Shown: positions 7,013 to 13,012 of the stretch, in pieces
Layout: each line of letters opens with the position of its first letter
Position numbering within the stretch: the stretch's first letter is position 1
Assembly (NCBI GenBank): GCA_050302495.1
Contig: JBNLBP010000001.1
Span: forward strand, 255,269 to 268,280
Direction of reading: 5' to 3'
DNA: 13,012 bases
Source of the DNA: Candidatus Pacearchaeota archaeon
Lineage (GTDB): Archaea > Nanobdellota > Nanobdellia > Pacearchaeales > GW2011-AR1
Position numbers and translations under genes: made by a program
Notes under the pieces: generated by a model
Database searches by the model: none
What the model saw: the letters and a program-made list of their open reading frames with translations, nothing else
What the model was told of the DNA's origin: nothing

Positions 7013-8412
7013 ACATATCTCTTCATTTCCATTATTTGGTGTACTTCTTCTGAAAGAGTTGGACGTATTTTTTTTATTAGGAATTTTCTAAATGCTTTTG
7101 GATCTTTTTCTTTCTTTTTGTTTTTTACTTCTTTTATTCTGTCTATAAATAGTGCAACCACCATTATGCTGGATATAGCACTTATTAGGAATATTATCTT
7201 TATTGGAGATACTATTGTTGGATCTATGAATGTTATAAGGAATGCCCCAACTATTCCTCCAAGGAAGATTCCAATTCCCATCATCATATTGAAATATGAT
7301 ACTGCAACACCTCTTTTTTCTTGAGATACATTGTCATATATGAAATTTCCTGAGGAAAGGTTAAATCCTGCCCAACCTATTCCCCTTACGAGTCCAGGGA
7401 CGAGTATAAGATATATTAATGAAGTGTCTAGGATCCATAGTATTGGAATTATTGGAATTAATATCATTGTTATTGCAAGGACTTTATAATTTCCGTATTT
7501 GTCTGCAATTTTCCCCCAAATTTCTGTTACTAGTAACGAGAAGAATGTTGCAGATAACAGAATTAATATATAGTTTGAATAACTCATATTTAGTGTCCTT
7601 AAGAGATAAACCGCTAATAGTGAGTTTGCAATTGTAACTGTAAACGAAAAGAATAACCTAAATATTGAGAACTTTCCAAAATTGGTTTTTGGAGCTTTCA
7701 TAATGAATTCAATAAATGAAAAATGCTTTCCTGGCTTTATTTTTAATTTGGGCTCGTATTCTTTTTTAAATATGCTATAACAGATAATTCTTGTGATGAA
7801 TGCTAGGGAAAATAGTGTTATGAAACCGATCATTGCCATTTCATTTTCTTTCATATACTCTAAGAAATAAGATGCGCCTATTGTTAGAACTAGTAGAGTA
7901 AATCCTACTAGAAGGTTTCTTTTTGCAAACCATCTGCCTCTGTATTTATCACTTACAATATCTCCTGTCCAGGAAAACCATCCTGGAACAATTAATCCAA
8001 AAAATATGGTATATACAGAGAAAAATAGTATGAACATTGCAGGGAGTATTTCCTTTAGTACATCCTTTATGAATAAGATGCTTATTATTATGAAAGATAA
8101 CCAGGTTATAGACTCAAGTAGAACTCCTTTTGTTACCACCTTTTTTCTTGTTTTCTTTTCTATAAGTTTAGATCCAAATATTTGGGATAACGGGCCCAAT
8201 AATCCTGTAATCGAACTCATTATTGCAACAAGCGAATTACTTGAATTTATTGCAATGGCAAATGGAGAGAGGTATTGTACACCGAATGAATTATTCGCGG
8301 ATGCAAATATTCCTTCTTTTATACTGAGGTTTCTGGCCTTTTGTTTTATCGTTTTCATTCTTTTCTTTTCGATTAATTCTGCCTCTTTTTTTGTTAGTTT
8401 TTTATTTTTCAT
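7000..8412 (-). CDS. MFS (major facilitator superfamily) transporter
   Basis: 470 aa with ~12 hydrophobic helices in a 6+6 arrangement and a central loop. A motif-A-like sequence GRWFAKRNLL follows TM2. The ~60-aa charged C-terminal tail is cytoplasmic-looking. It overlaps the upstream TrmB-like gene by 11 nt. Confidence 0.8.
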   Translation of the reverse strand: MKNKKLTKKEAELIEKKRMKTIKQKARNLSIKEGIFASANNSFGVQYLSPFAIAINSSNSLVAIMSSITGLLGPLSQIFGSKLIEKKTRKKVVTKGVLLESITWLSFIIISILFIKDVLKEILPAMFILFFSVYTIFFGLIVPGWFSWTGDIVSDKYRGRWFAKRNLLVGFTLLVLTIGASYFLEYMKENEMAMIGFITLFSLAFITRIICYSIFKKEYEPKLKIKPGKHFSFIEFIMKAPKTNFGKFSIFRLFFSFTVTIANSLLAVYLLRTLNMSYSNYILILLSATFFSLLVTEIWGKIADKYGNYKVLAITMILIPIIPILWILDTSLIYLILVPGLVRGIGWAGFNLSSGNFIYDNVSQEKRGVAVSYFNMMMGIGIFLGGIVGAFLITFIDPTIVSPIKIIFLISAISSIMVVALFIDRIKEVKNKKKEKDPKAFRKFLIKKIRPTLSEEVHQIMEMKRYVWKK

Positions 8413-9121
8413 TTTTTGCTACTTTCCACATAAGTTCAAAATATTTTTTATAACCTCCGGATATTTCTTTATTTTTTATCAATATGCCAATAGGATTTTC
8501 TTTAGACCATAAAATTATTGCAATTTTATCTCCGTAAATGTTTATTGCCATTGGAGAAGAATATTTTTCTGGAAGAAATCTTACTTCCGAATGAGGTATT
8601 TTTCTTTTACTTGGTTTTTCATTAAATATGATCTTCATCTTTATTTTTTTCTTTGTTCTTTCCATATTATACCATTTTAAGTAGAAACTCATTATATCAT
8701 GTGCTAGATGAGATCCTCCAAGAATAAGTATTTCCTTTGGATTTTCTTTTAGTTGGTCTTCAAATATTGTTCTTATTCCAGACCTTCCTTTGTAGAAATT
8801 TGTTTCTTGTTTTTCATTTGTGTTTTTATACATCAACATCATTTCTGGAAGTATTTCATTTACAAGATTCTCTTTTTCTTTTATTATATCTAAAAATTTC
8901 TCTGGGGATGATGCTTGGAAATGTCTTCTATTGTTTTTGATTATATATCCTATTAGGCCTTTTTGGATTAGCATTTCTGTTGTGTCGTAAACTGTTCTCC
9001 TGTGTAATCCTGTTTTTCTTGAAATTTGTCCTGCTAAACTTGGGCCAATTTCCAATAGTGCTTTATATATTGAAGATTCATTTTGGGTTAGCCCAAGATC
9101 CTTTAGACTCTTTGATTCCAT
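8402..9121 (-). CDS. TrmB-family transcriptional regulator (N-terminal winged HTH)
   Basis: 239 aa. The N-terminus is LGLTQNESSIYKALLEIGPSLAGQISRKTGLHRRTVYDTTEMLIQKGLI, which matches the TrmB-type wHTH pattern. The C-terminal domain is uncharacterised. It is first in an apparent three-gene unit with the MFS transporter. Confidence 0.7.
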   Translation of the reverse strand: MESKSLKDLGLTQNESSIYKALLEIGPSLAGQISRKTGLHRRTVYDTTEMLIQKGLIGYIIKNNRRHFQASSPEKFLDIIKEKENLVNEILPEMMLMYKNTNEKQETNFYKGRSGIRTIFEDQLKENPKEILILGGSHLAHDIMSFYLKWYNMERTKKKIKMKIIFNEKPSKRKIPHSEVRFLPEKYSSPMAINIYGDKIAIILWSKENPIGILIKNKEISGGYKKYFELMWKVAKNEK

Positions 9122-9240
9122 ATTGTTTGTTGGAAAATCTAGCTTTTAAAATCTTCTAATATGTGGTGAATTGTATCACCTCATAAATTAATTAACAAAT
9201 ATTTTATCTTAGATATAACTAAATTGTGGGAGGACAAAAA

Positions 9241-9717
9241 ATGGAATACGAAAATAAGGTAAGGAAATTGGTAGCACTAAATGATCTTAATGTGCCTCTA
9301 AGCGCTTTACATAAACGTGCATACAGAAAATCAAAGAATCTTGCGTCTAACATAGAGCGTGGTTTTGATAAAAGTAAGGATTTTGGATCTTCAATTGTGG
9401 ACGTTGTTTATGAAAATCAAGGTAAGTCTAGAGAATTGAGATCTGCTATAGATGAATTTAGTTCGAAATACCCTAACCAAGGAAGGCATTTGCAGAGACT
9501 TATTTCTGTTAATAGGGCGTCTAGAGAGATGTATTTGAACTATGGTATTAGATCAGATGATTCAATTAGTGATGAAGAGTATATATCTGTTATGAGAGAT
9601 ATTGGCCTTTCAGATACTCACGCTAGGGAACTCTATCCAACACTAGTAGACATATCTGATACCATGAAGGAAAAGAGTGGTTTGAGAAGTATTTTGATAG
9701 GCCATAGTGCCTATTAA
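9241..9717 (+). CDS. Hypothetical protein (158 aa), compositionally atypical, with a strong Shine-Dalgarno
   Basis: I chose the ATG at 9241 over the TTG start at 9226 given in the ORF track. GGGAGGA at 9229-9235 lies 6-7 nt upstream. Codons are noticeably GC-richer (cgt, gcg, agc) than in neighbouring genes. The protein (MEYENKVRKLVALNDLNVPLSALHKRAYRK...) has no motif I recognise. Confidence 0.55.
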   Translation: MEYENKVRKLVALNDLNVPLSALHKRAYRKSKNLASNIERGFDKSKDFGSSIVDVVYENQGKSRELRSAIDEFSSKYPNQGRHLQRLISVNRASREMYLNYGIRSDDSISDEEYISVMRDIGLSDTHARELYPTLVDISDTMKEKSGLRSILIGHSAY

Positions 9718-9762
9718 AATCCTTTTAGTTAGTTTTTTATACTTTTGTCTTTTGATTTTTTT

Positions 9763-11607
9763 ATGACAAATAGATTTTACGTTACAACCCCTATATACTA
9801 TCCAAATGACATCCCCCATATAGGCCATGCATATACAACTATAGCGGCAGATGTCCTTGCGAGATGGAATAGGTTATTGGGAAAAGATGTTTTCTTTTTA
9901 ACTGGAACTGATGATCATGGTAAGAAAATTGAGAGTATTGCTAAAGAAAAAGGTCAAAAACCTAAAGAGTTTATTGATAAGTTAATTCCTAAATTTAAGG
10001 ATGCTTGGAAGAAATTAAATATTGATTATGATTATTTTATAAGAACTACTGATAAAGCGCATGAAAAAGTGGTTCAAGAAGTTCTCCAGAAAGTTTATGA
10101 CAAAGGAGATATTTACTTGGGAGATTATGAAGGGTTTTATTGTACTGGATGTGAGGCGTATTATACAGAAAAAGATCTTGAAGATGGAAGTTGTCCGATA
10201 CATAAAAAACCCGTTGAGGTTTTGAAAGAGGAAACTTATTTCTTTAAATTGAGTAAGTATCAGAAGAAGCTTTTAGATTTGTATAAGAAGAATCCAGAAT
10301 TTATTTCTCCTAAAAACCGTTCAAAGGAGATAATAAATAGAGTTGAAGAAGGATTGAAAGATTTGAGTATTTCTAGGACTAGTTTTGACTGGGGTATAAA
10401 ATTGCCTTTTGATAAGAAACACATAGCATATGTTTGGTTTGATGCTCTTTTGAATTATTATTCTGCTACTAGATTGAAAGGAAAAGAAAAATTCTGGCCG
10501 GCAGATGTTCATTTGATTGGTAAAGATATTATTTGGTTCCACACTGTTTATTGGCCTGCTATGTTGCTTAGTGCAGGAATTGAATTGCCTAAGAAAGTTT
10601 TTGCACATGGATGGTGGACTTTTGATAACGAAAAGATTTCAAAGTCTCGGGGAAAGGTAATAAATGTAGACGAACTTATAGGTATTGCAGGTGTTGATTC
10701 TGCAAGATACTTCTTGCTTAGAAATACTGCTTTTGGAGATGATGGTGATTTCTCAGAACAAGTTTTGATTGATAGACATAATAATGAATTGGCAAATAAA
10801 TTAGGCAATTTAGTTTCTAGAGTTTCTGGTTTAATTGAAAAGAATGGATTTGAAAAAACTTCAAATAAACTTTCTGACAAATTAAAATTAAAAGAAATTG
10901 AAAAATTGTTTGTTGGATGTGAATTTGATAAAGTTCTTAATGAGATTTTTGCCTTTGTAGATATTTGTAATGAGTATACTCAAAATAAAAAACCTTGGGA
11001 AACTAAAGATGGAAAGGTTTTGTATGAATTGGCGGATTCAATAAAAGCAATTGCAATATTACTTTGGCCTTTTATCCCAGAAACTTCAGAGAAGATTGCA
11101 AGGCAATTTGGATTTAAGATTGATTTAAAAGAATTGAACAAACCTTTAAGCGATAAGGTAAAAATAAAGAAAGGAACTGTTTTGTTTAATAAAATTGAAG
11201 TTAAGAAAGAGGAAAAAACTAATAAACCTAAGAATAATTCTAAGAATAGTAAAATTGAAGGTATTATGAATATGAGTGAGGCTAATTTTTCTGATTGGGA
11301 GAAACTTGATTTAAGAGTAGCAGAGATAAAAAAAGTAGAAGAGATTGAAGGGGCTGATAAGCTGTATAAATTGTCTTTAGATGTTGGAGAACTTGGAGAG
11401 AGAACTATTTGTGCTGGAATTAAACAATTTTATTCTAAAAAGGATCTTAAAGGTAAGAAAATAATTTATTTTTCTAATTTGAAACCTAGAAAGATGAAAG
11501 GTGTTGAAAGTCAAGGTATGTTGTTAGCCGCATCTACTGGAGACCATAGTGAAGTTATTTTGATTTCTCCAGAGAAAGATATTGATAATGGGGCAAGAAT
11601 AGGTTAA
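9763..11607 (+). CDS. metG: Methionyl-tRNA synthetase (class I) with C-terminal EMAP/Trbp111-like tRNA-binding domain
   Basis: HIGH motif: PNDIPHIGHAYT. KMSKS motif: KISKSRG. Zinc knuckle: YCTGCEAYY...GSCPIHKKP. The C-terminal ~110 aa (DLRVAEIKKVEEIEGADKLYKLSLDVGE...) form an OB-fold tRNA-binding appendix. I chose the ATG at 9763 (MTNRFYVTTPIYY) over the upstream TTG at 9745 in the ORF track. Confidence 0.93.
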   Translation: MTNRFYVTTPIYYPNDIPHIGHAYTTIAADVLARWNRLLGKDVFFLTGTDDHGKKIESIAKEKGQKPKEFIDKLIPKFKDAWKKLNIDYDYFIRTTDKAHEKVVQEVLQKVYDKGDIYLGDYEGFYCTGCEAYYTEKDLEDGSCPIHKKPVEVLKEETYFFKLSKYQKKLLDLYKKNPEFISPKNRSKEIINRVEEGLKDLSISRTSFDWGIKLPFDKKHIAYVWFDALLNYYSATRLKGKEKFWPADVHLIGKDIIWFHTVYWPAMLLSAGIELPKKVFAHGWWTFDNEKISKSRGKVINVDELIGIAGVDSARYFLLRNTAFGDDGDFSEQVLIDRHNNELANKLGNLVSRVSGLIEKNGFEKTSNKLSDKLKLKEIEKLFVGCEFDKVLNEIFAFVDICNEYTQNKKPWETKDGKVLYELADSIKAIAILLWPFIPETSEKIARQFGFKIDLKELNKPLSDKVKIKKGTVLFNKIEVKKEEKTNKPKNNSKNSKIEGIMNMSEANFSDWEKLDLRVAEIKKVEEIEGADKLYKLSLDVGELGERTICAGIKQFYSKKDLKGKKIIYFSNLKPRKMKGVESQGMLLAASTGDHSEVILISPEKDIDNGARIG

Positions 11608-11612
11608 TTTTG

Positions 11613-11650
11613 TTAGGTGCTGTTTTGTAGAAATAGCATTAAGTGCTGTT
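11613..11650 (+). repeat. Tandem 12-nt direct repeat TTARGTGCTGTT x2 immediately downstream of the metG stop
   Basis: TTAGGTGCTGTT at 11613-11624 and TTAAGTGCTGTT at 11639-11650 (11/12 identical, 26-nt spacing). These overlap GTTAGGT (11612-11618) and GTTAAGT (11648-11654), which match the GTTRRRY consensus. Confidence 0.5.
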
Positions 11651-11730
11651 AAGTCGCCCCGAGCCGATAGGCGAGAGCGCAGCGTGGTCGAGGCGAAGCC
11701 GAAGAAGTTTTGGGACGGAGGCAATACATC
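11651..11730 (+). repeat. GC-rich repeat copy A (diverged family with copies B and C)
   Basis: GTCGCCCCGAGCCGATAGGCGAGAGCGCAGCGTGGTCGAGGCGAAGCCGAAGAAGTTTTGGGACGG...TACATCAGCAG is about 65% GC in a ~30% GC genome. It contains a TCGCC/GGCGA hairpin and a GGC-GAA-GCC mini-hairpin followed by TTTT. It shares GGCGAAGCCGAA, TTTTGGG-CG and TACATCA with copy B. It shares CCGAGCC-RAWAGGCGAG with copy C. Confidence 0.6.
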
Positions 11731-11749: not shown

Positions 11750-11772
11750 ATTTTTAATTCTTGAAGGGTAAT

Positions 11773-12273
11773 ATGTTAAGTGAATTAGAGCAAGAAGTTG
11801 TGGATAGTCATAAGGAAGGGTATTTTGGGGCATATATACAAGGGTCATGGTTTGAATATTCTGAATTACAGGAACAAATAGTTAGTGGAGAGTATCCAGA
11901 ATCATCAAGATTACAAGAAGCAAATAAAAAAATGAGTGGATGGAAAAAGGGGTTTGATATTACTTATTTACATTCATTGCCTCGTGCTGAAATTAATCCA
12001 TTACAAGTAGAACAAGAGGCATGGAAATTATTATCTCCAAATATCAAACAATATCTTAATGAATTCGGAACATATCTTGAAGGATATTCTCCCCAAAATG
12101 CGGATAGAGAACAACTTCTTGTTCATGTGAATTGGGGATGGAATTTACTGCAACAGTGGAATACCATTTCTAATTCATACAAAGCAAAGTATGACAAAAA
12201 TTGGTCATCAATTCCAGAAAGAGAGGAAGCCACAAGACAACTTATTCAAGAATTATCCTCTAAAAAACCGTAG
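11773..12273 (+). CDS. Hypothetical protein (166 aa), W/Q-rich, compositionally atypical
   Basis: I chose the ATG at 11773 (MLSELEQEVV...) over the TTG at 11761. The codon usage is GC-richer than the housekeeping genes, and the protein has a high Trp/Gln content (WFEYSELQEQ, NWGWNLLQQWN). There is no motif I recognise. It is flanked by repeat copies A and B. Confidence 0.5.
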   Translation: MLSELEQEVVDSHKEGYFGAYIQGSWFEYSELQEQIVSGEYPESSRLQEANKKMSGWKKGFDITYLHSLPRAEINPLQVEQEAWKLLSPNIKQYLNEFGTYLEGYSPQNADREQLLVHVNWGWNLLQQWNTISNSYKAKYDKNWSSIPEREEATRQLIQELSSKKP

Positions 12274-12292
12274 TCTCAAAATTGCACATAAT

Positions 12293-12400
12293 TCCTGTTA
12301 TATCCGTCGGAGTGAAACGGAGACCGAAGGTTAGTGCAACGTTCGGCGAAGCCGAAACCCGAAGAGTAATTTTTTTGGGCGTTACATCAAGAACGAAGTT
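12293..12400 (+). repeat. GC-rich repeat copy B, between the convergent genes
   Basis: CTGTTATATCCGTCGGAGTGAAACGGAGACCGAAGGTTAGTGCAACGTTCGGCGAAGCCGAAACCCGAAGAGTAATTTTTTTGGGCGTTACATCAAG contains a perfect TTCGGC-GAA-GCCGAA hairpin (12342-12356) followed by T7 (12371-12377). It is in the same orientation as copies A and C. Confidence 0.6.
12342..12377 (+). terminator. Hairpin + oligo-T; possible bidirectional terminator within repeat B
   Basis: A 6-bp GC stem with a GAA loop is followed 14 nt later by TTTTTTT. It lies between two convergent genes. Archaeal termination uses oligo-T tracts. Confidence 0.3.
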
Positions 12401-12436
12401 CCATTAAATAAAAGAATAAAGGGCAAGAAGAAACAT

Positions 12437-12856
12437 TTATTGTTGAGCTGGTAAATCATACTCAAATACTGGTCGTCCACTTTCTCGGAATTCAGCAGTT
12501 TCTCTCATTGATTGTTTTCCACCGCCAACTCTTACAAGAACATCAAGTGATTTTAAGAATGTTGGACTTTCGTCTCCCCATTCATTTCCAACAATCTGTT
12601 CTTCATCAACAGGAAAACAATCATGATCTTTAGCTTTAGAACAAGCGACACCAACGGTTCGCCAATCTCTAGAAACTGCTTCTCTATATGCTAATGCTGG
12701 AATTCCGAGGTCTGTTAGACCAGAAACAACTGCTTTTGATTTTCCAGCGTATTGACTATCAATAGTATCATATGCGTCCCTCAGCATTCTTACAGCTTCA
12801 GGTTCATCAAATTTCTGAGCTGAGTAACCTACAACTCCGATTTTTATTTCGTCCAT
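12437..12856 (-). CDS. SLOG-superfamily (DprA/LOG-like) Rossmann-fold protein, ~140 aa
   Basis: The preferred start is ATG at 12854-12856 (MDEIKIGVVGYS...). A TTTATATA box at 12881-12888 would then lie ~25-32 nt upstream. The ORF-track N-extension to 12904 would put this TATA box inside the CDS. Three motifs support the assignment: a beta1 Gly-rich segment IGVVGYS; VVSGLTDLGIPALAYREAV, which resembles the DprA SGxAxGIDxxAHxxAL motif; and RVGGGKQSMRETAEF, which resembles the LOG PGGxGTxEE motif. The gene is GC-richer than the genome. Confidence 0.5.
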   Translation of the reverse strand: MDEIKIGVVGYSAQKFDEPEAVRMLRDAYDTIDSQYAGKSKAVVSGLTDLGIPALAYREAVSRDWRTVGVACSKAKDHDCFPVDEEQIVGNEWGDESPTFLKSLDVLVRVGGGKQSMRETAEFRESGRPVFEYDLPAQQ

Positions 12857-12880
12857 GATACTATTGTAACTATTGAGTAG

Positions 12881-12888
12881 TATATAAA
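12881..12888 (-). promoter_or_regulatory. TATA box for the SLOG-like gene (leaderless-type spacing)
   Basis: Plus-strand tatataaa corresponds to TTTATATA on the minus strand, 25-32 nt upstream of the ATG at 12856. Confidence 0.45.
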
Positions 12889-12924
12889 TGTTTCTGTTGC
12901 CCAATCACTATTTAGCCCAAAAAA

Positions 12925-13012
12925 ATTATTGGATATAACCGTTGTTCGAAGACCGAGCCAAAAGGCGAGGCACGAGCTGAAGTCCACAGACTTCCTCGTG
13001 AGTTGAAATTTG
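12925..13012 (+). repeat. GC-rich repeat copy C (truncated by the window end)
   Basis: GGATATAACCGTTGTTCGAAGACCGAGCCAAAAGGCGAGGCACGAGCTGAAGTCCACAGACTTCCTCGTGAG. CCGAGCCAAAAGGCGAG aligns with copy A's CCGAGCCGATAGGCGAG, and ATATAACCGT aligns with copy B's TTATATCCGT. It contains a 12-bp imperfect hairpin with a 2-nt bulge and a CACA loop: CACGAG-CT-GAAGTC(12971-12984) [CACA] GACTTCCTCGTG(12989-13000). Confidence 0.55.

Follow-up and report, generated by a model that had tools for sequence, protein, structure and literature searches.

The last gene in a 13,012-nt stretch of contig JBNLBP010000001.1 from a Candidatus Pacearchaeota archaeon (the window, by which we mean the whole of that stretch), located at 12437..12856 on the minus strand, encodes a stand-alone protein with the Rossmannoid SLOG fold that belongs to an uncharacterised family at the edge of Pfam LDcluster4. 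We infer that this is an accessory chromosomal protein which binds or cleaves a phosphoribosyl nucleotide derived from nicotinamide adenine dinucleotide (NAD), and which would thereby contribute to cofactor salvage or homeostasis in a reduced-genome archaeon; to this reading, covering ligand, catalysis and role together, we give about an even chance. The fold, the conservation of the family, the statistics of its neighbourhoods and fusions, and the portability of the DNA block that carries the gene are matters of observation.

The protein is a three-layer alpha/beta Rossmannoid with a parallel five-stranded core, whose closest structures are LOG, DprA, the molybdenum-cofactor carrier protein (MCP), YpsA and TRPM-MHR, and it carries both the glycine-rich loop after strand 1 and the later glycine-rich loop followed by an acidic residue that are typical of the SLOG superfamily. 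The fold matches scored 14.4 for MCP, 14.0 for YpsA, 12.8 for TM1055, 12.6-11.0 for PpnN and the LOG enzymes, 11.5 for the TRPM2 N-terminal domain, 11.5-10.8 for ShosA/DprA and 9.0 for the ThsA SLOG domain, and the SLOG assignment that an earlier note had made from the sequence is therefore correct. The Pfam matches are all to SLOG families and all below threshold: LDcluster4 (PF18306) is the best profile match (23.8 bits against a cut-off of 26.3; E 3.8e-5; residues 4-132), and LSDAT_prok (19.7 bits against 25.4) and DNA_processg_A (DprA/Smf, PF02481; 14 bits against 29.6; E 0.028; residues 28-76) are the others. The profile check that the note had proposed thus recovers a SLOG relationship and no confident placement among the LOG proteins. 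The family straddles the LDcluster4 threshold, since several homologues, among them P0134 (27.0 bits) and P0168 (27.7 bits), pass it, and many homologues were already annotated as LDcluster4. A profile search of the PDB sequences matched MCP-like chains alone, and weakly (E 0.007 and 0.5). TIGR00725 gave 11.7 bits (E 0.13) against an NCBIfam cut-off of 106.9, Pfam YpsA gave no match, and searches of NCBIfam, PADLOC and PHROGs returned nothing useful for the SLOG protein or for the neighbouring open reading frames (ORFs) ORF170 and ORF163. A search of the library of papers available found no published characterisation of this SLOG family, and a query on 'LDcluster4' was likewise empty.

The three motifs quoted in the earlier note are present and coincide with the most conserved blocks of the family, invariance being counted across 82 diverse family representatives. 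The first, IGVVGYS (residues 6-12; codons at 12821..12841, minus strand), forms the glycine-rich loop after strand 1, with G7 and G10 invariant; the structure model places a strand at residues 3-10. The second, VVSGLTDLGIPALAYREAV (residues 43-61; 12674..12730, minus strand), is a DprA/MCP-like SGxxxxG-helix motif in which S45, G46, G51, Y57 and A60 are invariant or nearly so, and it aligns with GGxxGVM of the MCP-like chains. The third, RVGGGKQSMRETAEF (residues 109-123; 12488..12532, minus strand), is a variant form of the GxGTxxE motif by which LOG and MCP proteins bind phosphate/ribose, with G111, G113, Q115 and E119 at or near invariance; its consensus GGGxQSxxE (here GGGKQSMRE, with all of G111-G113 among the family's near-invariant columns) aligns with GIGLGTLSE and GMGPGTAAE of the MCP-like chains. 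A fourth block that the note had not reported, the family-specific acidic motif WGDES (residues 93-97; 12566..12580, minus strand), is as well conserved as the other three, with G94, E96 and S97 near-invariant. The near-invariant polar residues Y57, E96, S97, Q115 and E119 suggest a specific ligand pocket, and possibly catalysis.

That the gene is real and not a chance reading frame follows from the 387 homologues found at E<=1e-3 among 5.8e9 proteins (best E 1.7e-85), from the 555 representative clusters at 50% identity returned by a profile search, and from the mostly synonymous differences (8 synonymous and 2 non-synonymous codon changes) between the window copy and a 99%-identical copy on contig L081. 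Translation of 12437-12856 on the minus strand, from the ATG at 12856 to the TAA stop at 12437-12439, yields 139 amino acids plus the stop, with MDEIKIGVVGYS at the N terminus and LPAQQ at the C terminus. The protein is small and stand-alone, as the note describes it, and consists of a single domain. The ORF list also contains a longer frame (12437-12904, minus strand; 155 aa) that begins with a TTG at 12904, and one public annotation of what is apparently the same genome (P0281, 155 aa) uses that upstream start. The ATG is the better start, because the TATA box TTTATATA (12881..12888, minus strand) sits within the TTG extension, and the homologue alignments of the family agree in beginning at the ATG and not at the TTG. 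A distance of 24 nt separates the end of the box from the ATG, a spacing that fits a leaderless promoter with a predicted transcription start, and the box is kept at the same distance in five orthologous loci (L081, L083, L084, L082 and L008), so that the claim of a promoter of its own in leaderless arrangement is sustained. A scan for sigma-70 promoters and intrinsic terminators was uninformative on this archaeal DNA.

The evidence on function comes largely from the relatives. Loci were collected from contigs of homologues (L001-L009, L081, L082, L163-L165), GTDB genomes (55), IMG/VR (14) and JGI metagenomes (80). On L001, from a DPANN archaeon syntenic with the window, the genes run PnuC-NadR-ADP_ribosyl_GH-SLOG-Nuc_deoxyri_tr2 in overlapping frames, directly before the MetRS gene and downstream of L15e-DUF7575-MFS; an 81%-identical homologue stands in the order NadA-ARH-NadK-SLOG, ARH being the ADP-ribosyl_GH gene; and in a Pacebacterium the SLOG gene and NrtR adjoin NMNAT, Nudix, phosphoribosyl pyrophosphate (PRPP) synthetase, NAPRT and NadE. 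NMNAT and NadK lie near the gene in L025 and NrtR in L064, and additional loci have NadK, NMNAT, NrtR or ARH. In a census of dereplicated loci of the subfamily with at least 50% identity, NAD genes were found within three genes in 10 of the 68 informative loci, often in tight operons, and they made up 24 of 307 genes at that distance as against 8 of 332 genes farther away in the same loci (Fisher p=0.0014). The Pfam families that recur most among the 119 immediate neighbours are ADP_ribosyl_GH (4), CTP_transf_like (3), and NrtR, NUDIX, Nuc_deoxyri_tr2 and NAD_kinase (2 each), and a few unrelated families are likewise seen twice. NAD/ADP-ribose metabolism is the sole recurring theme of these neighbourhoods. 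A search for NrtR operators in the intergenic regions of L006 found promoter-like TTGACA boxes alone.

Read by analogy with the LOG- and MCP-type loops, these features suggest how the protein might work. Two loops, the glycine-rich one that follows strand 1 and that of the GGGxQSxxE motif, would hold the phosphoribosyl part of a nucleotide in a pocket lined by E96 and E119 together with S97, Q115 and Y57. The ligand would most likely be NAD-derived, namely nicotinamide mononucleotide (NMN), ADP-ribose or a derivative, and the protein might either cleave an N-glycosidic bond, in a LOG-like phosphoribohydrolase reaction carried out by the conserved glutamates, or sequester or sense the ligand. 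In its DPANN-type host it would be a chromosomal accessory gene of nucleotide-cofactor salvage or homeostasis, expressed from its own leaderless promoter and carried by a small module that has been reshuffled between chromosomal sites.

Several observations weigh against this proposal. The window itself contains no NAD gene; about 85% of the informative loci are without a nearby one, the SLOG gene usually being solitary; and the NAD link is found in none of 42 loci of the subfamily below 50% identity, which is mainly from Bacteroidota. MCP, the best structural match, binds the molybdenum cofactor and not a nucleotide, and the placing of E96 at the position where the MCP-like proteins have an arginine comes from a weak profile alignment (E 0.007-0.5) of low confidence. 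The canonical LOG motif PGGxGTxxE and the catalytic arginine are absent from the protein and the LOG Pfam family gives no match even at E<=10, so that catalysis is hypothetical and the protein may do no more than bind a ligand.

We weighed against it the possibility, which the earlier note had preferred, that the gene is a conflict component on a mobile element, where its product would recognise or break down an immune signal made from NAD, for example a cyclic ADP-ribose (cADPR) isomer, and would serve as the sensor of a Thoeris-like system or, on the anti-defence side, as a sponge or enzyme; we think this unlikely for the window copy. It draws on the occurrence of the same 646 bp amid different flanks, described below, and on the wider family. 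Homologues occur on 14 IMG/VR contigs of up to 524 kb and in jumbo phages: in Sinorhizobium phage Phosso (L065) a 52%-identical homologue adjoins ribonucleotide reductase (RNR) and glutaredoxin genes, and gp345 of Bacillus phage G adjoins thioredoxin reductase. Members of the family are fused to 2H/Acb1-like phosphoesterases in P0151, P0181, P0199, P0152 and P0146, and others to DUF5662 or an AlkB-like oxygenase. The 2H/Acb1-like phosphoesterases act on cyclic nucleotides and on ADP-ribose cyclic phosphates, and Acb1 is an anti-CBASS protein. The P0199 fusion (L163, 170-3627, a phage-like contig) has genes for thymidylate kinases and an NAD-dependent DNA ligase as its neighbours, and in L077 a Nudix gene is directly upstream of the SLOG gene. 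A further locus is the prophage-like L068 (3870-6241 of IMG/VR UViG 2894286821_000001), in which a cI-like repressor and a cro-like helix-turn-helix gene are followed by a 53%-identical SLOG gene, convergent with genes for a SLATT_1/DUF4231 protein with two transmembrane segments and a ThsB-type TIR protein; this phage SLOG protein may act on TIR-derived signals. SLOG domains in general have been predicted to bind or process NAD+ and ADP-ribose (ADPr) derivatives (PMC9503650; PMC6459960), and viral ones to counter ADPr signals (PMC9503650). The conflict signals agree with these predictions, but they give no ground for calling the window copy a defence gene. The fusions, the phage copies beside RNR, glutaredoxin and thioredoxin reductase genes, the Nudix gene of L077 and the published predictions also count in favour of the NAD reading.

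Two further observations concern the wider family. P0146 is a protein of 2358 aa that combines a 2H phosphoesterase, an Fe/Mn superoxide dismutase (SOD) C-terminal domain, the SLOG domain (922-1043), a topoisomerase IB and a weak M91 peptidase match. In a group of jumbo phages (L065, 5995-6917; L069-L074; L080) the SLOG gene has a TnsA-like 'head completion' gene on one side and an overlapping gene of 168 aa on the other; the latter has no Pfam match and is co-conserved in 7 loci, with the RNR genes next in Phosso.

Against a conflict role for the window copy, the links in the family are sporadic: a TIR or SLATT neighbour is present at 1 of about 110 loci (L068), the SLOG protein is without a PADLOC or PHROG match, and PADLOC on the 119 immediate neighbours gave generic helicase, kinase and radical-SAM domain matches alone. 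There is no fused effector, and no effector or TIR gene of a Thoeris or SLOG-SLATT-TIR arrangement within the 1.2 kb examined on the visible side of the gene or the 156 nt of upstream DNA that the window holds. The family is highly conserved (55-87% identity across phyla), unlike fast-evolving conflict proteins. Close archaeal relatives are found amid translation and housekeeping genes, with the SLOG gene between aIF5B and rpS6e in a 70%-identical relative, adjoining Sec61beta/NAC in an 87%-identical one, and beside proteasome/SBDS in another; the MetRS context of L001 is of the same kind. In further relatives, where the gene is likewise solitary, it lies near TatD (91% identity) or adjoins a DUF359 plus cytidylyltransferase protein (86%).

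The composition of the gene, which the note had called foreign, is native-like. While its GC content is 0.393 in a window of about 31% GC, the fraction at third codon positions (GC3) is 0.164, under that of every other window gene (0.21-0.31) except the short unannotated ORF o94 (0.158). The values at codon positions 1 and 2 are 0.60 and 0.41, and the excess of GC there comes from the amino-acid composition.

The convergent neighbour ORF170 (11761-12273, plus strand; probable start at ATG 11773, giving 166 aa, and preceded at about 25 nt by the TATA-like box TTTATAAATA) does not supply a partner either. Among 5.8e9 proteins it finds 8 homologues, each of about 166 aa and domain-free; P0269 is 100% identical to it. 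Its confident AlphaFold2 model (pLDDT 90) is a four-helix bundle that matches generic and de novo designed bundles alone. It is absent from all of the more than 160 SLOG loci compared, and a metagenome scan based on it gave no match. With ORF170 a plain orphan helical bundle that is not associated with the SLOG family, the window shows no partner effector; and since ORF170, ORF163 and ORF101 gave no BLAST or tblastn matches in any collected locus, they are not conserved partners of the SLOG family. Defence or conflict cargo as the leading explanation is therefore not supported for the window copy, whose nearest relatives are surrounded by aIF5B/rpS6e, Sec61beta/NAC, proteasome/SBDS and MetRS genes and whose family has NAD/ADP-ribose metabolism as its recurring theme. 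A conflict role may nonetheless apply to the phage-borne relatives.

A conventional phosphoribohydrolase of nucleotide 5'-monophosphates, of the LOG/PpnN type and with purine- or cytokinin-type nucleotides as substrates in housekeeping purine salvage, would account for the resemblance of GGxQSxxE to PGGxGTxxE with its glutamate retained, and for the salvage genes that are sometimes near (IU_nuc_hydro in L003, SurE in L005, and Nuc_deoxyri_tr2 in L001, L097 and L104). The protein is, however, some 40-60 residues shorter than the LOGs, finds no LOG match in Pfam at E<=10, and has Gln and Ser at the positions of the motif Gly and Thr; the low-confidence alignment sets an invariant glutamate against the catalytic arginine, and the recurring neighbours are NAD-specific and not purine-specific. 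We judge this explanation to have little probability. The protein lacks those defining features of LOG, DprA and TIGR00725 that the sequence comparisons covered.

A cofactor carrier or storage protein of the MCP/TM1055 type, without catalysis, would be in keeping with the PDB profile matches, which are to MCP-like chains alone, and with one neighbour of the tungstopterin-type AFOR family. Yet molybdopterin biosynthesis genes are not recurrent among the 119 immediate neighbours, the pocket with its two invariant glutamates, glutamine and serine is unlike the MCP motifs, and members of the family are known from jumbo phages and from the reduced genomes of DPANN archaea and bacteria of the candidate phyla radiation (CPR), where molybdoenzymes are generally rare; we regard it as quite improbable. 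Least likely of all is a DprA-like single-stranded-DNA-binding recombination mediator, since the weak DNA_processg_A match over the SGxxxxG helix motif spans 49 residues and lies far under its cut-off, the single 139-aa domain is without a SAM or winged-helix extension, and competence and recombination genes do not recur among the immediate neighbours.

We therefore return to the NAD-derived nucleotide reading as the best account of the window gene. DPANN archaea and CPR bacteria rely on nucleotide and cofactor salvage, and their NAD homeostasis is poorly mapped. The recurrence of the family in PnuC-NadR, NadK, NMNAT and NrtR clusters, together with the phage-like Acb1-type fusions, makes it a candidate for a step that is still missing in the processing or sensing of NAD/ADP-ribose. 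More speculatively, and with only a small chance of being right as a whole, the family could be an unrecognised NAD/ADP-ribose-recycling N-glycosidase of DPANN archaea, CPR bacteria and jumbo phages, with NMN, ADP-ribose or a cyclic ADP-ribose-type nucleotide as its substrate and two invariant glutamates in place of the LOG Arg/Glu pair; phages would have taken it up, in some cases as a fusion with an Acb1-like phosphoesterase, to destroy NAD-derived immune signals, and the lineage of the window would carry it as a relocating 646-bp module of promoter, gene and 3' region. The SLOG fold and the general association of SLOG with NAD are already known; the leads that we see are the recurrence of the family in DPANN and CPR NAD clusters, the two-glutamate pocket and the modular mobility. 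The window protein also offers a small, readily expressed member of a SLOG clade so far covered by computational predictions alone. In relation to the earlier note, the fold is upheld and the 'foreign, defence cargo' interpretation is unsupported.

The gene lies in a portable block (12292..12939) that comprises the promoter, the gene and a 3' region of about 145 nt and that is conserved as a 646-bp unit amid unrelated flanks. The block is 94.8% identical over 654 nt to L081 (460-1113), 91.7% over 653 nt to L083 (1967-2619) and 95.9% over 460 nt to L085 (3-462). Homology ends at the same two junctions throughout, ...ATCC/AATAATTTTTTTGGGC at one end and after CGGATATAACAG at the other, and the sequences beyond are unrelated, so that the gene does form a discrete, portable unit. 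The block ends carry GGATATAAC and GTTATATCC, which are imperfect in L081 and L083. These do not fit the integron core consensus RYYYAAC...GTTRRRY, and terminal inverted repeats like those of a miniature inverted-repeat transposable element (MITE) are not apparent, the 9-nt inverted repeat being exact in the window copy alone; neither the attC nor the MITE model fits the block. An integrase was seen neither in the window nor in the related contigs, which are short, and neither a recombinase nor a canonical recombination site was recognised at the block. On L083 a similar 3' module follows each of two consecutive genes, an uncharacterised ORF of 157 aa and then the SLOG gene (1729-1918 and 2469-2663); the paralogous modules share two stretches, one of 58 nt (74% identity) and one of 51 nt (86%) with the palindrome GAAACCTTGCAGGTTTC in it, and the copies are spaced 740-745 nt apart. 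As judged from the sequence, this two-gene arrangement has a cassette-like tandem organisation.

A perfect 14-nt inverted pair, built of T7/A7 runs, has one arm (TAATTTTTTTGGGC, with a T7 run) at 12367..12380 on the plus strand and the other (TAATTTTTTTGGGC on the minus strand) at 12915..12928, upstream of the SLOG promoter, and both arms are also present in L081. The first arm is probably the terminator of the convergent ORF170, and the pair is most simply read as two oligo-T terminators that would insulate the SLOG gene. Intergenic islands of at least 55% GC, scored in 40-nt windows, are found at 11634-11728, 12302-12368 and 12935-13006, all in the last 1.4 kb of the window; the second lies in the 3' region of the block and is conserved with it. 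Elsewhere in the window that level is reached in the tRNA gene and over 45 nt within the MFS gene (7363-7407). The islands share short motifs, GGCGAAGCCGAA twice and CCGAGCCnAnAGGCGAG twice. When the three islands were folded on both strands, 12915-13012 on the plus strand alone beat its shuffles (z -3.67, with a hairpin at about 12970-13000), and island 12302-12368 folded no better than shuffled sequence. An Rfam search of the window (E<=1) found the tRNA-Ile and a spurious miRNA match, and nothing for the islands. The notion of a locus bounded by repeat elements thus comes down to short shared motifs, the 14-nt T7/A7 pair and the GC-rich islands, and is only weakly true.

The window is archaeal; along with the tRNA-Ile it has genes for TBP, an ATP-dependent DNA ligase, ribosomal protein L15e, an Fe/Mn SOD, a protein with a SET domain, a TrmB regulator and an MFS transporter. 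Its MetRS gene (9745-11607) was recognised by synteny with that of L001, and an L15e-DUF7575-MFS ... MetRS backbone is common to window 5208-11607 and L001 376-8916. The slot between MFS and MetRS is occupied in L001 by the PnuC-NadR-ARH-SLOG-Nuc_deoxyri_tr2 operon and in the window by the TrmB regulator and an unknown 163-aa ORF; relative to L001, the SLOG gene of the window is on the other side of MetRS and in the opposite orientation. The window MetRS is a single 620-aa protein, and L001 has separate genes at 6908-8916 for a 467-aa MetRS, an 87-aa chorismate-mutase-like ORF and a 122-aa tRNA_bind protein. The C-terminal part of the window protein clusters with the tRNA_bind gene product of L001, and the window MetRS therefore appears to carry a fused tRNA-binding domain.

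Among named systems, the nearest is LDcluster4, the SLOG cluster 4 family reportedly defined computationally by Burroughs et al. in 2015, for which we know of no established function. Both it and the window family consist of small SLOG domains that frequently stand alone or are joined to domains for nucleotide processing, and the WGDES and GGGxQSxxE signatures are the window family's own. From the LOG/PpnN phosphoribohydrolases (5wq3, 9us2, 5ajt) the window family differs in having Gln-Ser for Gly-Thr and, in a weak alignment, an invariant glutamate where the catalytic arginine is expected, in the shorter chain of the window protein, and in neighbours that are NAD genes and not purine or cytokinin genes. 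It is unlike MCP (2iz5) and TM1055/TIGR00725 (1rcu) in being without a molybdenum-cofactor context and in its conserved pocket residues. Identity to the YpsA clade (2nx2) and to the Thoeris ThsA SLOG sensor (7uxs) is just 9-16%; the window protein is without the fused SIR2 or transmembrane effector of the ThsA type, and its family recurs in biosynthesis and salvage operons and not in defence islands. In BFVD the viral SLOG families so annotated give weak structural matches, with 10-20% identity and E values of roughly 1e-5 to 1e-3. The viral SLOG domains described previously (PMC9503650) nevertheless resemble the window family in that it has homologues in jumbo phages and on IMG/VR contigs and is fused to, or neighbours, 2H, Nudix and NAD-dependent ligase genes, while the window copy, unlike them, is chromosomal and archaeal.

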